This document shows positions 12,713-14,414 of a stretch of DNA of 38,341 nucleotides, piece after piece; the stretch's first letter is position 1; the number at the start of each line of letters is the position of its first letter. The position numbers and the translations under genes are program-made. The DNA comes from a virus. Below the pieces are notes generated by a model, which was given only the letters and a program-made list of their open reading frames with translations, was not told the DNA's origin and searched no databases. The stretch is taken from the UHGV virus genome UHGV-0133281. One strand, written 5' to 3'.

Positions 12713-12866
12713 TTCACAGCCTCCTTACAAATTCCGTTAATTATTCTAGAGAGATACATTTATAGTATAGGGAAATGGAATTTAAGACAACAAAAAAGCC
12801 GGATTCCTCCGACTGTTGGTAATATTCTCGACACGAATATTATACCACAAACGGGGGAATCAAGGG

Positions 12867-13334
12867 ATGGTACTTTTTGACGTAAAGAAATATGAAACGC
12901 CAGCTGCAAAAGATGTAGACATGGAACAAACTAAACATAACGTCAGTGTGTTCCTATCTGCCTATCTTGCTGCTAGATGTCGTGTTGGCCAGCCGAGGGA
13001 ACCAAAAGTAACAGCTTCATTCTCTTTGGTTCCACCATCAACGGCCAATAACGTTTTCGAAGCCGAACAAATGTTAATCCAGAAAGAAGAAGCACAAGAA
13101 GAGTTTGATTACCTTCACAAGCTTTTTGTTAGAGGTTATTCTGCGATCCAACATCCGCACAAACCAGATGTAACGGAGAGAAGAAAAAGAATTTTCTATG
13201 ACCGCTATATCAACGGCAATCCAATATATCTAGCAGCGCAACGAAACTGCATCAGCGAAGAATCAGTGAAACAAGAATCTAATATGATCATTGTTCAATT
13301 TGCTTCAGCACTGGAACTGGTTGCTTTTAAGTAG
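12867..13334 (+). CDS. arpU: ArpU-family late transcriptional regulator (RinA/LtrC-like phage late activator)
   Basis: Size and sequence features of the ArpU family. Canonical position just upstream of the packaging genes. Start at MVLFD, preferred over the upstream in-frame ATG because of a GGGGG..AAGGG RBS. Confidence 0.6.
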   Translation: MVLFDVKKYETPAAKDVDMEQTKHNVSVFLSAYLAARCRVGQPREPKVTASFSLVPPSTANNVFEAEQMLIQKEEAQEEFDYLHKLFVRGYSAIQHPHKPDVTERRKRIFYDRYINGNPIYLAAQRNCISEESVKQESNMIIVQFASALELVAFK

Positions 13335-13554
13335 CCATTTATTACACTTTTTATACCTCTTTTATACACTTTATCTGCACATCATATACCTTCAAAACGA
13401 GTTATTATGATAGTGTCAAAAAAATAAGAAATGCGACACACTTACACAAATACATTAACGGAACGATTGCCTACTTATTTTTTTGATTTGAGATTACAAG
13501 GAAGTAAAAAAATTCTACTTTCTTCGTTTAGTCACTTGTGATCTCATTTAGATT

Positions 13555-13629
13555 CTCTCGCAAACCACAAATTAAAACTAAAGAAGTGAGGTGAATTTCC
13601 TCTCTCTTTTTTCTACAGGTTTGCGAGAG
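13555..13629. repeat. 12-bp perfect inverted repeat (CTCTCGCAAACC / GGTTTGCGAGAG) with a 51-nt spacer. Large hairpin or operator. Flanked by an 11-bp direct repeat GTTTAGTCACT (13516-13526 and 13634-13644).
   Basis: Read directly from the sequence. Located in the 765-bp ORF-free region. Confidence 0.6.
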
Positions 13630-13638
13630 TTAAGTTTA

Positions 13639-13768
13639 GTCACTGTGGCGGAATAGGTAGACGCTCGTACGTGAGATTAGACATTGGAACAACGTATAAG
13701 TTCGTATGTAGGGCTTTGGCCCATCGGATAAATCTAATCATGCGAGGTGCAAATCCTTGCCAGTGACA
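13639..13768 (+). ncRNA. tRNA-like structured RNA of about 130 nt. It has a 7-bp terminal acceptor-like helix, a tRNA-Leu-like D-arm, a GGGCTTTGGCCC variable-arm-like hairpin and a T-arm-like CGAGG-TGCAAAT-CCTTG. It does not fold as a canonical cloverleaf and may be a degenerate or unusual tRNA or a novel ncRNA.
   Basis: 5' GTCACTG pairs with 3' CAGTGAC followed by A. TGGCGGAATAGGTAGACGC is near-identical to bacterial tRNA-Leu D-arms. An internal 7-bp helix GATTAGA/TCTAATC is present. Confidence 0.3.
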
Positions 13769-13888
13769 TAATCATTTTAGCCGTGAAAGTCTGCGAAAGC
13801 TACGTACTGATGGGAAAACATTCTGACGAGAGTGTGTAAAGGTTAATTTGATTTATTAGCAATTGCTAGAAGGTAGCTCCTTCTGGTA

Positions 13889-13962
13889 TGGCGTGTAGCT
13901 CAATTGGTGAGAGCGGTTGATTTTTAATCAAGTAAATGCAGGTTCGACTCCTGTCACGCCAA
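13889..13962 (+). tRNA. tRNA-Lys (anticodon UUU)
   Basis: Manual cloverleaf. Acceptor TGGCGTG/CACGCCA. D-arm GCTC-AATTGGTGA-GAGC. Anticodon arm GTTGA-TTTTTAA-TCAAG with one G:G at positions 27:43. T-arm GCAGG-TTCGACT-CCTGT. Discriminator A. No CCA encoded. Confidence 0.7.
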
Positions 13963-14042
13963 TAAGTAGCAAATGCTGCTTAAATAAAATAGATCGTCAC
14001 TAAATGTTCGGACAAACAAATTGGCGCTACTACCTTTCACGA

Positions 14043-14070
14043 GGGCTGCATTTCTATGCAGTCCTTTTTA
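14043..14070 (+). terminator. Rho-independent terminator closing the RNA island, just upstream of the late operon
   Basis: GGGCTGCAT-TTCT-ATGCAGTCC stem-loop followed by TTTTT. Confidence 0.55.
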
Positions 14071-14099
14071 CATAATTTTATAAGGAGGTTGTTACATCT

Positions 14100-14414
14100 A
14101 TGAGTAAAAAAGAACAGATTAAAAAGCAACAAGCACAGTTCTTAGAAATCATGAAGAAGGTTCGTGAAGAGAAAGATATAGATGCGCTTGCAGAACTGTT
14201 TATTGAAATCATTTCGGTATATGGGCTGAAGATGGATGAGACATCAGCATTACTTTATTACGTTCAGAAAGAAACACTTGAAGCAGATCACAATGCACAG
14301 TTCTTAAAAAAACGATTGAAACTTGATGTTAAGTCGCTAGGTATTGAAGGTGTGCTGCAAGTACAACGTGCGTTGGTTAACACTTATATAGATGGATTGA
14401 AGAAAGGGAAGTGA
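14100..14414 (+). CDS. Hypothetical protein (first gene of the late region)
   Basis: 104 aa. RBS AAGGAGG. Confidence 0.5.
   Translation: MSKKEQIKKQQAQFLEIMKKVREEKDIDALAELFIEIISVYGLKMDETSALLYYVQKETLEADHNAQFLKKRLKLDVKSLGIEGVLQVQRALVNTYIDGLKKGK

Follow-up and report, generated by a model that had tools for sequence, protein, structure and literature searches.

Several described RNAs are built on parts of the tRNA fold. Ponchon and Dardel are said to have engineered a "tRNA scaffold," a tRNA body whose anticodon stem is fused to an arbitrary structured RNA and which makes use of tRNA processing and stability. Among natural RNAs, tmRNA (RF00023) forms an acceptor stem from its two ends, has a T-arm, and carries, in place of the anticodon arm, a long helix that leads to its other domains. 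YrlA (RF02553) is a tRNA-mimicking non-coding RNA (ncRNA) with D- and T-arm modules that occurs in phages beside tRNA genes, and the mascRNA of MALAT1 and the t-elements of plant mitochondria are tRNA-like RNase P/Z cleavage signals within longer transcripts. In phage T4, the stable RNAs rnaC and rnaD (species 1 and 2, ~120–140 nt) end the tRNA cluster, and the 3′ end of rnaC is a canonical T-arm. Other prior work concerns the region between late activators and late genes. Listeria phage phi10403S encodes the ncRNA rliG in the interval from the ArpU-type activator llgA to terS; lysogens express it strongly, and virions can be produced without it (PMC7397523). In phage phiFL2A, three 7-nt direct repeats just downstream of arpU serve as binding sites for ArpU, and the terminator of the ltr-terS intergenic region, which has the ArpU-bound repeats at its 5′ end, was located experimentally (PMC3753634).

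We analyzed the virus genome UHGV-0133281 (38,341 nt, hereafter the window), which has a 130-nt tRNA-like element at 13639–13768. It belongs to a widespread, tRNA-Leu-derived phage family, which covariation strongly indicates to be real, and it is probably the gene for a stable ncRNA. It is so far unannotated: we found no description of it in Rfam or in the literature that we searched in full text, and the paper that re-annotates SPP1 is silent on the element.

The element lies downstream of a gene for an ArpU-family late-gene activator (12816–13334; NCBIfam TIGR01637 phage_arpU, E = 1e-12) and upstream of the first late gene ORF (14100–14414, start codon at 14100); these and all features below are on the plus strand. 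Between the two genes, at 13335–14099, neither strand has an ORF of ≥60 aa, and the longest is 39 aa. The original prediction of a protein-free gap was therefore correct, and its reading of the region as an RNA island is supported. At the 5′ end of the gap, two direct repeats TTTTATAC identified by eye (13349–13356 and 13360–13367) are candidate ArpU boxes by analogy with phiFL2A. At its 3′ end, the terminator predicted at 14043–14070 corresponds to a terminator-like feature at 14041–14069, consisting of a hairpin (14041–14066, −16.9 kcal/mol, z = −7.1) followed by U5 and ending 30 nt before 14100. A simple terminator scan did not include this hairpin among its calls.

The element is followed by a conserved 120-nt spacer (13769–13888), which folds at its end into a hairpin (13864–13888, loop UAGCU) that abuts a tRNA-Lys(UUU) gene (13889–13962). 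This tRNA has no encoded CCA, and it is as canonical as predicted, with a cloverleaf, a UUU anticodon, an ARAGORN call, and an Rfam tRNA score of 68.3 bits. The spacer is almost the same in ~35 Enterococcus phage loci, and its small hairpin covaries elsewhere. Sister phages carry different tRNAs beside the element, some of them with aberrant anticodon loops. We rejected a hammerhead or other ribozyme in the spacer, where CUGANGA- and GAAA-like strings form no ribozyme core and Rfam gave no match. We also rejected a T-box-like pairing of the tRNA acceptor end with sequence downstream of tRNA-Lys, as it is not kept in IME197.

The anatomy of the element follows that of tRNA-Leu at both ends. The 5′ acceptor strand GUCACUG (13639–13645) pairs with 13761–13767 and is followed by U8 and G9 (13646–13647), a D-arm GCGGAAUAGGUAGACGC (13648–13664), and a linker UCGUACGUGA (13665–13674) of the kind that joins D-arm and insert helix across the family. 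The variable insert (13675–13739) is predicted to fold into a closing helix, GAUUAGA (13675–13681) with UCUAAUC (13733–13739), around two small hairpins. An A-U then precedes the T-arm (together 13740–13760), in which G13742:C13760 and CGAGG/CCUUG form 6 bp around the loop UGCAAAU (13748–13754). The 3′ acceptor strand CAGUGAC and discriminator A13768 complete the element (13761–13768), and UAA follows. The acceptor stem and T-arm are assigned by covariation, the 3′ end also by end statistics across the family, the D-arm by its match to phage tRNA-Leu genes, and the limits of the whole element by its identity to Schiekvirus and its family membership. The predicted 7-bp stem GTCACTG/CAGTGAC followed by A, the Leu-type D-arm, and the T-arm CGAGG-TGCAAAT-CCTTG are thus all present, and the suspected near-identity to tRNA-Leu D-arms is real, since the D-arm 19-mer TGGCGGAATAGGTAGACGC is identical in 12 ordinary phage tRNA-Leu genes. 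By contrast, two internal features require a different reading. The hairpin GGGCTTTGGCCC, taken for a Leu-type variable arm, is only a piece of the hypervariable insert and is missing from other members, and GATTAGA/TCTAATC, thought to be an extra helix that blocks the cloverleaf, is the family-typical closing helix of the insert. We also rejected a mini-ORF starting at the conserved AUG (MQGANPC...), because in many members AUG is followed by a UAA stop (CATGTAAGG).

The element shares with tRNA-Leu (RF00005) the core that forms the L shape and elbow, namely the 7-bp acceptor stem, U8, the Leu D-arm with its 19-mer (A14, A15, and G18G19), U48, and the T-arm (U54, C56, and A58), and it has no encoded CCA, as in many Bacillota tRNAs. 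It therefore has the acceptor stem, D-arm, T-arm, and conserved tertiary nucleotides of a tRNA core. However, it lacks the Leu variable arm and the anticodon stem with its 7-nt loop, in place of which stand the 10-nt linker and the 65-nt branched insert. The T stem has 6 bp, with one extra G:C pair, position 55 is G instead of U (in UGCAAAU), and the discriminator varies across the family. Standard tRNA searches pass over it: ARAGORN called only tRNA-Lys in the window, and Rfam returned no tRNA match at 13639–13768, either at gathering (29 bits for tRNA) or at E ≤ 10.

Comparison with the other RNAs again revealed partial likenesses. The resemblance to tmRNA extends to the presumed parent synthetase of the element, which ignores the anticodon, but the element lacks a tag ORF, has C3:G70 in the window in place of G3:U70, keeps a full Leu-type D stem, is much smaller, and carries an unconserved insert; the tmRNA covariance model found no match in the window. 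YrlA differs in being circularly permuted, with a loop-closed acceptor, and in ending in a Ro-binding stem with a conserved Ro-binding helix. It did not match the element, and its single weak match in the window (18 bits) overlaps tRNA-Lys; sub-threshold YrlA matches also occur near the Schiekvirus locus. The mascRNA and t-elements are most like a mini version of the element, described below, but they are eukaryotic or organellar, have no sequence relationship to the family, and lack a variable insert. T4 rnaC and rnaD have neither a Leu-type D-arm nor the UGCAAAU loop, and we rejected them as homologues because they show no sequence similarity. The engineered scaffold is man-made, whereas the phage element would use a similar design naturally.

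The relationship to rliG (RF02415) is one of position. Both occupy the slot between an ArpU-type activator and terS, and in Listeria phage LP-LmcIH1-9 rliG directly precedes a family member, with the tRNA-like element beginning at the end of the rliG match. Yet the rliG model comprises the upstream hairpin and a different 3′ part rather than the tRNA-like scaffold. In Listeria phage L159, the rliG match covers only the upstream flank of the element, and there was no rliG match at E ≤ 10 in 13300–14120 of the window. The only RNA of this locus with expression data is rliG, and those data come from a phage whose rliG model excludes the tRNA-like part.

We defined the family by a 7-bp covarying terminal stem, UG, GCGGAAUAGGUAGACGC, an insert, AUG, a 6-bp T stem with the loop UGCAAAU, and a 3′ acceptor strand directly after it; the window element agrees at every position. 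Exact-pattern scans and parsing recovered 107–167 distinct elements (at least 167 members, as a lower bound), with 59 different acceptor stems and lengths of 61–285 nt. They occur in phages and prophages of Enterococcus, Listeria (PSA, P100), Bacillus (SPP1, Goe3), Leuconostoc, Lactobacillus, and Paenibacillus. The family also extends to Clostridia, Fusobacterium, and CPR genome bins, and both lytic and temperate phages carry it. Because well above 150 independent loci show the architecture together with compensatory changes, its recurrence is not due to chance, and conservation of the block in related phages is likewise supported.

Among 65 scaffolds set by D-arm and T-arm anchors, all seven acceptor pairs showed double changes and 98.5–98.9% of cells were paired, vs. 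27–40% in slid controls. In a sample anchored on the D-arm only, the T stem was 97% paired, with double changes at 5/6 pairs. The D-arm pair 11:25 alternates between CG and UA across the family, most members preserve the T-loop UGCAAAU, and U8, A14, A15, G18, G19, U48, U54, C56, and A58 are invariant in alignment A1. The scaffold is under clear purifying selection. A degenerate tRNA-Leu, one of the possibilities raised originally, is unsupported because the acceptor and T-stem pairs have been compensated in this way, and a functional RNA derived from tRNA-Leu, another of those possibilities, is supported instead. At the 3′ end, the discriminator is A in 60% of members, U in 28%, and G or C in 12%, the next base is U in 63% (UAA, UUA, or UUG), and the first base is never C. 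These ends resemble those of a CCA-less tRNA.

The inserts, by contrast, range from 9 to ~260 nt and are unrelated in sequence between sub-families. Their placement is nevertheless regular: in 45/63 members exactly 3 nt separate the closing helix from the T stem, linkers from the D-arm to the helix peak at 10–11 nt, and an A usually stands just before the helix. Compensatory changes occur inside insert classes (L095 vs. L140; L187 vs. L099), and one class is common to Paenibacillus, Fusobacterium, and Listeria phages. The anchored helix, the compensatory changes, and the shared class suggest that inserts are selected structures. Folding energies barely beat those of shuffled sequence (mean z = −0.8). 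The commonest version in Enterococcus phages is a "mini" element of 52–54 nt, which has no insert and no G18G19. Some inserts hold tRNA fragments or an entire tRNA, and they have no terminal repeats.

An intron-like insertion into a tRNA-Leu, also proposed for this element, did not hold up, as family-type inserts are not followed by the 3′ half of an anticodon stem or a Leu variable arm. In most members only A-U-G separates insert and T stem, and the anticodon arm is wholly absent from members with 9–24-nt inserts. Member L117 (78 nt) is the exception that keeps an anticodon arm with a 6-nt loop. By contrast, L293 keeps both anticodon-stem halves around a 290-nt insertion; we considered L293 as a group I intron control and rejected it because Rfam calls no intron there at gathering threshold. 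No known RNA family overlapped the inserts in the window and 27 loci searched with Rfam. We also rejected the insert as an antisense regulator of the phage's own genes, since the longest match antisense to the window insert in its own phage genome was 10 nt, within the 10–12 nt of shuffles. The motif UAAG could be a relic of a Leu(UAA) anticodon loop, but this is only a suggestion because UAA|G stands at the linker–helix junction in only ~1/6 of members.

Upstream of the element, a repeat search and folding identified a long hairpin (13555–13629) that encloses a weak hairpin with U6 (13588–13612). Its outer stem is the 12-bp perfect inverted repeat with a 51-nt spacer that had been predicted (13555–13566 and 13618–13629; −26.6 kcal/mol, z = −4.6). 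This stem carries compensatory changes in L141 (CACTCACAAA/TTTGTGAGTG) and IME197 (GTCACTTGCA/TGCAAGTGAC), and these arms, GTCACTTGCA/TGCAAGTGAC in both IME197 and phiFL2A, are similar to the acceptor stem of the element itself. In Listeria phages, the rliG hairpin fills the equivalent relative position. The window has exactly two copies of the 11-bp direct repeat GTTTAGTCACT, vs. 0.01 expected by chance. The second copy (13634–13644) begins where predicted and overlaps the 5′ acceptor strand. The first copy was found at 13526–13536, so its predicted start at 13516 was a coordinate slip. We do not find that the repeat is a target-site or att-core duplication: the upstream copy lies 5′ of the stem of the conserved hairpin, as part of its 5′ side, the other copy overlaps the 5′ end of the element rather than flanking it, and nothing mobile lies between the two.

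Across the family, the commonest slot is between an ArpU/RinA late activator and HNH/terS, with RinA upstream in 32 loci, ArpU upstream in 40, HNH downstream in 25, and terS downstream in 48. Other members stand before endolysin or terL genes, between genes 9 and 11 in SPP1, or within tRNA arrays in Herelleviridae; P100 and Goe3 both carry members, that of P100 inside its tRNA array. In Schiekvirus (150-kb lytic phages), the element is in a tRNA array 2 nt after the phage tmRNA, and its 97–99% identity to the window is confined to 13637–13772. That the identity stops at the edges of the element supports its being an autonomous unit, as judged from these alignments. Same-strand tRNAs lie ≤300 nt away from 33/167 distinct elements. 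Other RNAs were also seen near family members or at the early/late boundary, including rliG, the mcrA motif, tRNAs whose identity changes, an EAR/epsC antiterminator RNA 140 nt upstream of the element in one Paenibacillus prophage, and an abiF RNA motif 13 nt upstream at one locus.

We consider the chances about even that the element is a natural tRNA scaffold, which would be excised like a tRNA by RNase P/Z and would display a variable effector RNA. Placed between late activator and late genes, it would be transcribed together with the hairpin RNA before it and the tRNA after it, in a leader or an RNA "moron"; in large lytic phages it would be transcribed within the tRNA array. Cleavage by RNase P at G13639 and by RNase Z after A13768 would release it, as with the adjacent CCA-less tRNA-Lys, and the tRNA-like fold would give the excised RNA defined ends and nuclease resistance. 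The working part would be the insert, binding a host or phage partner that varies by phage. Several points count against this scaffold. Because of G55 and the 13-bp stack of acceptor and T stems, RNase P, RNase Z, or the CCA-adding enzyme might recognize the RNA less well, and pure display of cargo does not explain the mini version without an insert. The inserts fold only slightly better than shuffled sequence, that of the window has no significant antisense match in its own phage genome, and the marked positional association with late activators and terS could reflect a cis role instead.

Such a cis role is somewhat unlikely in our estimate. The element would then be a processing or regulatory part of the late-operon leader and its fold mainly punctuation, as in mascRNA and the plant t-elements, with RNase P/Z cleavage setting where the upstream hairpin RNA ends and where the late mRNA begins, or with a role in read-through of the flanking terminators. 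This would suit the mini version, the terminator-like hairpins on either side of the island, the experimental ltr-terS terminator with ArpU-bound repeats at its 5′ end (PMC3753634), the antiterminator upstream in the Paenibacillus prophage, and the repeated pairing, over many acceptor lineages, of RinA, ArpU, or another sigma-like activator upstream with HNH/terS downstream. Still, members in tRNA arrays (Schiekvirus, P100), at endolysin and terL genes, and between SPP1 genes 9 and 11 are far from late leaders, conservation between temperate and lytic phages ends at the edges of the element, and punctuation leaves selected lineage-specific inserts unexplained. Alternatively, the element could be an aminoacylatable tRNA-Leu mimic, to which CCA is added and which LeuRS, ignoring the anticodon, would charge with leucine. 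The charged RNA would then divert LeuRS as a decoy or sink, or donate leucine in a tmRNA-like or non-ribosomal way. Bacterial LeuRS identity lies in A73 and core tertiary elements, and minimal tRNA-Leu without anticodon and variable arms is reportedly charged, according to work by Asahara (1993/1998) and Larkin (2002). The family keeps exactly the tRNA-Leu D-arm and A15/U48, as well as A73 in most members, and one member closely follows a tmRNA. However, we regard this as quite improbable: the discriminator is not A in 40% of members, the extra T-stem pair lengthens the stack to 13 bp, position 55 of the T loop is G, G18G19 is missing from the mini version of Enterococcus phages, and there is no tag ORF, G3:U70, or match to tmRNA or any other Rfam family.

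A role against host defences, with the core or insert acting as a decoy for or sequestering a host factor such as a tRNA-targeting nuclease or Abi toxin, and with the adjacent, often swapped tRNA replacing host tRNAs cleaved by defences, seems very doubtful. Hypervariable lineage-specific inserts recall an arms race, the shifting identities and aberrant anticodon loops of the neighboring tRNAs would fit, as would the nearby abiF motif, and the Listeria locus behaves as an accessory unit that is expressed in lysogeny and without which lytic growth is fine (PMC7397523). Yet all of this evidence is circumstantial, the element is not linked to any defence gene, and one scaffold serves from Bacillota to CPR bins despite differing defence repertoires. 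Even less probable, and strongly disfavored, is a non-functional relic, either a phage tRNA-Leu broken by insertions or a DNA recombination site with a target-site duplication. The missing anticodon arm, the lack of an ARAGORN or Rfam call, the nearby 11-nt direct repeat, and the tRNA pieces in some inserts could all be read in this way, but a relic would not show covariation in its T and D stems and across 59 different acceptor stems, nor keep its tertiary positions invariant, nor be maintained across phyla in lytic and temperate phages; moreover, inserts have no terminal repeats and the GTTTAGTCACT copies do not flank the element.

The scaffold proposal also has a broader form, which we consider unlikely: a multi-phylum system of modular RNA display, in which a tRNA-Leu chassis processed and protected like a tRNA would carry cargos recombined at the conserved arms, and these would act as effectors (aptamer, decoy, or sponge) against factors of the host or rival phages. 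In a bolder variant, a LeuRS-charged chassis would act on the ribosome or with a transferase, comparable with tmRNA and alanine.

If the family is real, long-studied model phages (SPP1, PSA, P100, and phiFL2A) carry an unrecognized RNA gene. Annotation of phage genomes would benefit from a covariance model of the scaffold. With its built-in variable domain, the element is an example of natural tRNA mimicry that lends itself to study, and its chassis could guide the design of RNA expression scaffolds for Gram-positive bacteria. It also marks an RNA-rich boundary between early and late genes, a locus that may matter for late-gene control or for phage–host conflict. In some annotated genomes, small ORFs have been placed over the element (SPP1 "gene 10," B054 gp75, and B025 gp64), and these may be spurious.

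The window comes from a temperate Enterococcus phage, and the gap between its ArpU-family late activator gene (ending at 13334) and first late gene (starting at 14100) had been predicted to be a protein-free RNA island. ORFs of at least 60 aa were indeed absent from both strands of this gap. The predicted 12-bp inverted repeat (13555-13566/13618-13629) was present, as was a terminator before the late genes, seen as a strong terminator-like hairpin at 14041-14066 followed by U5. The 11-nt direct repeat GTTTAGTCACT was found at 13526 and 13634; the position 13516 first reported for its upstream copy was wrong. ARAGORN and Rfam, two of the tools proposed for checking the region, agreed on one canonical tRNA in the window, the expected tRNA-Lys(UUU) at 13889-13962 (68.3 bits in Rfam). 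The same check left the 130-nt tRNA-Leu-like element at 13639-13768 uncalled, with no match in ARAGORN or any of 4227 Rfam models even at E ≤ 10. Its stems and arms were nonetheless present as described.

In a BLAST search of phage genomes, also suggested earlier, lytic Schiekvirus phages with genomes of about 150 kb matched at 97-99% identity, and the match was confined to window 13637-13772, which is the element plus 2-4 nt per side. The Schiekvirus copy lies within a tRNA array, 2 nt 3′ of the phage tmRNA end. At the same site as in the window, sister temperate phages such as IME197 and phiFL2A carry a mini version of 52-54 nt, with the same acceptor stem and T-arm, a shorter D-arm, and nothing between the arms. 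We collected the family by exact-pattern scans of IMG/VR, using a T-arm pattern and, independently, a D-arm pattern, and parsed the hits. This yielded at least 167 distinct elements that share a single architecture. Each opens with seven 5′ nucleotides of free sequence, followed by U-G and GCGGAAUAGGUAGACGC; an insert, 9 to about 260 nt long, then leads to (C)AUG and a T-arm whose loop is UGCAAAU; and the element closes with seven 3′ nucleotides that are complementary to the first seven, plus one more base. This last base, the discriminator, is A in 60% of elements and is followed by U in 63%, and no element has C as its first base; in these ends, the element resembles CCA-less Bacillota tRNAs. 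Enterococcus phages hold the mini and at least seven unrelated inserts, their insert-bearing elements measuring 92, 115, 130 (two kinds), 138, 160, and 205 nt. The element is portable as a unit among unrelated phages. The family is not described in Rfam 15 or in the literature searched, which left out much subscription literature, and it appears to be undescribed.

To assess pairing, we set acceptor positions from the D-arm and T-arm anchors alone, and complementarity played no part in selection. Across 65 distinct scaffolds with 47 different 5′ strands, 98.9% of cells were paired and all seven acceptor pairs changed on both sides, while sliding the partner by 1-3 columns gave pairing of 27-40%. 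D-stem pair 11:25 alternated between C:G and U:A in the same scaffolds. Because the T-arm sequence was fixed by construction in this first sample, the test was repeated on a sample anchored on the D-arm, in which the 6-bp T stem was 97% paired. Five of the six pairs of this stem showed double changes, among them the outer G:C, which is an extra pair relative to the T stem of tRNA. The tRNA-core positions U8, A14, A15, G18, G19, U48, U54, C56, and A58 were invariant. The element thus has a conserved tRNA-core fold with its free ends in the acceptor stem, and this covariation contradicts the suggestion that it is a degenerate tRNA-Leu. The D-arm 19-mer also occurred in 12 ordinary phage tRNA-Leu genes in the D-arm scan (UAA, UAG, or CAA anticodons); therefore, descent of the family from tRNA-Leu, as originally proposed, is well founded.

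The insert between the D-arm and T-arm is variable and closed by a helix. Among the 63 members with inserts of at least 30 nt, 45 had a closing helix of 5-9 bp whose 3′ strand was separated from the T stem by exactly 3 nt (AUG). Its first pair was mostly G:C, and the linker from the D-arm to its 5′ strand was typically 10-11 nt. In the window, this helix is GAUUAGA (13675-13681)/UCUAAUC (13733-13739), which had been noticed and taken for an extra internal helix. It may replace the anticodon stem or the class II variable arm. Inserts differed wholly in sequence between lineages and were conserved with compensatory changes within them (locus L095 vs. L140, L187 vs. L099), and one insert class was common to Paenibacillus, Fusobacterium, and Listeria elements. 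Some inserts contained additional T-arm-like hairpins, and in one 202-nt element (L075, IMG/VR contig 2619618821_000002), ARAGORN called a complete tRNA-Lys(UUU) nested in the insert. None of the inserts searched matched an Rfam family, and folding energies barely beat those of shuffled sequence (mean z = −0.8). We also observed a sub-class (L228, L238, L264, L276, L280, L291) with a second helix-closed insertion in the T loop directly after G55, bearing the conserved motif GGGUGAC-UAUACGAGU...CUCGU-CAAAUCCC. In the otherwise near-identical elements L094 and L078, an insert hairpin loop was inverted (AACGTATG vs. CATACGTT) with its stem retained.

The element works most like tRNA-mimic non-coding RNAs, yet it lies outside each class compared, and it failed the Rfam covariance models of tRNA, tmRNA, YrlA, and rliG up to E ≤ 10. 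It differs from tRNA in having no anticodon arm, from tmRNA in having neither tag nor G3:U70, and from YrlA in not being permuted; with T4 rnaC/rnaD, it has no more in common than the broad notion of a stable RNA ending a phage tRNA cluster. An intron-containing tRNA-Leu, one of the original readings, was excluded because neither an anticodon 3′ half nor a variable arm follows the insert. Separately, the scans returned a 374-nt tRNA-Leu(UAA)-like gene (L293) retaining both anticodon-stem halves, the variable arm, and a canonical T-arm, with an insertion of about 290 nt splitting the anticodon loop. This gene has the appearance of a tRNA-Leu with an intron, but Rfam called no group I intron in it at the gathering threshold.

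We consider the chances about even that the element is a natural “tRNA scaffold”: RNase P and RNase Z would excise it from a precursor, the tRNA fold would make the RNA stable, and the insert would be its lineage-specific working part. The earlier reading of the element as possibly regulatory was judged right. The main rival is a role in cis, as a mark for processing or regulation within the leader of the late operon. This would account for the bias in position and for the mini, which has no insert, but leaves members in tRNA arrays and the selected inserts unexplained; we regard it as unlikely. LeuRS ignores the anticodon, so a leucine-accepting mimic is attractive, but the discriminator varies and both G55 and the 13-bp stack also weaken the case; we consider it distinctly improbable. 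An anti-defence decoy, for which the evidence is purely circumstantial, seems to us a slim prospect. A dead relic or att site is contradicted by the covariation and is very improbable indeed; the related reading of the direct repeat as a target-site duplication was judged wrong.

A scaffold query matched 200 phage records (Listeria 70, Bacillus 50, Enterococcus 36, then Leuconostoc, Lactobacillus, and others). Inspected by eye, the element lay between genes 9 and 11 in SPP1, overlapping the doubtful “gene 10”; after gp53, a putative activator, in Listeria PSA; as a variant in a tRNA array in Listeria P100; and within a small annotated ORF (gp245) and just 5′ of it in Bacillus Goe3. Among the listed matches with annotation, the only RNA features over them were ordinary tRNA-Leu genes, and the paper that re-annotated SPP1 is silent on the element. 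The exact T-arm 22-mer occurred in 41 species-level genomes, mostly Bacillota; the others were Fusobacterium, three CPR lineages, Thermodesulfobacteriota, Pseudomonadota, and Bacteroidales bins, whose binned contigs are possibly mis-assigned phage DNA. Across 172 loci, the commonest upstream neighbors were RinA (32), ArpU (40), or another sigma-like activator, and the commonest downstream neighbors were an HNH endonuclease (25) and the small terminase (48); some members sat before endolysin or large-terminase genes. tRNA genes are often beside or around the element, with a same-strand tRNA within 300 nt in 33 of 167 distinct elements.

In phiFL2A, which carries the mini, ArpU binds three 7-nt direct repeats immediately 3′ of arpU, and the intergenic region between arpU and terS contains a terminator (PMC3753634). 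At the corresponding position, the window carries two TTTTATAC repeats. Its long hairpin (13555-13629) contains a weak hairpin plus U6 and has an outer stem that changes compensatorily in the related phages L141 and IME197. This hairpin may be the terminator to which the phiFL2A experiments pointed; it also matches the rliG hairpin of Listeria in position. In Listeria phage LP-LmcIH1-9, rliG (Rfam, 160 bits) spans the hairpin just upstream and ends at the element start, and Rfam also called an mcrA RNA motif downstream of the element, a motif seen there in Listeria phages (L159 2274-2323). In phi10403S, rliG occupies the interval from llgA, an ArpU-type activator gene, to terS; it is highly expressed in lysogeny and can be deleted without impairing virion production (PMC7397523). 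The Rfam rliG model lacks the tRNA-like part, and matches in A118-type phages are limited to the upstream portion; therefore, rliG expression is indirect evidence for the element.

In PSA (L203 650-760), the activator gene is followed by two direct GACCCGTTT repeats, a promoter close to consensus (TTGACA, spacer, TAATAT), and an rliG-type hairpin, in that order. Together with lysogenic rliG expression, this layout resembles lambda Q/pR′/tR′, and by analogy it raises the question of whether Ltr proteins might act partly by read-through. An EAR/epsC processive-antiterminator RNA lay 140 nt upstream of the element in a Paenibacillus prophage (L174 6306-6424), and a contig from a Faecalibacterium bin had an abiF RNA motif (L163 1941-1977) 13 nt upstream of its element. 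Just 3′ of the SPP1 element, a hairpin annotated as a Rho-independent terminator (L158 2620-2651) is in fact a minihelix resembling a T-arm, CGGGTTCAATTCCCG, with complementary strands on either side, and it weakly matches the tmRNA model (13.8 bits).

In the window, a small hairpin with the loop UAGCU (13864-13888) abuts the tRNA-Lys 5′ end, and its stem covaries across phages (AGAAGG/CCUUCU, GAGGG/CCCUC, GGAGG/CCUCC). The tRNA itself, ~120 nt 3′ of the element, was compared across window 13889-13962, L002 1938-2011, L003 1936-2010, L004 1645-1717, and other Enterococcus phage loci. Its acceptor stem (TGGCGTG/CACGCCA) was constant in the phages whose sequence was read, and its identity differed among sister phages (Lys-UUU, Glu-UUC, Arg-ACG, Arg-UCG, Ile-AAU). 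The Glu-UUC version is an unchanged body with one anticodon base altered, and some versions had aberrant anticodon loops and were called “tRNA-???” by ARAGORN. The tRNA array of the Schiekvirus Enterococcus phage phiSHEF16 held a phage tmRNA (130 bits, tag AKNEELLAVA) and three sub-threshold YrlA-like (Y RNA-like) matches of 29-47 bits (L001 2653-3003, 4626-4726, 5727-5834, and 5905-6027).
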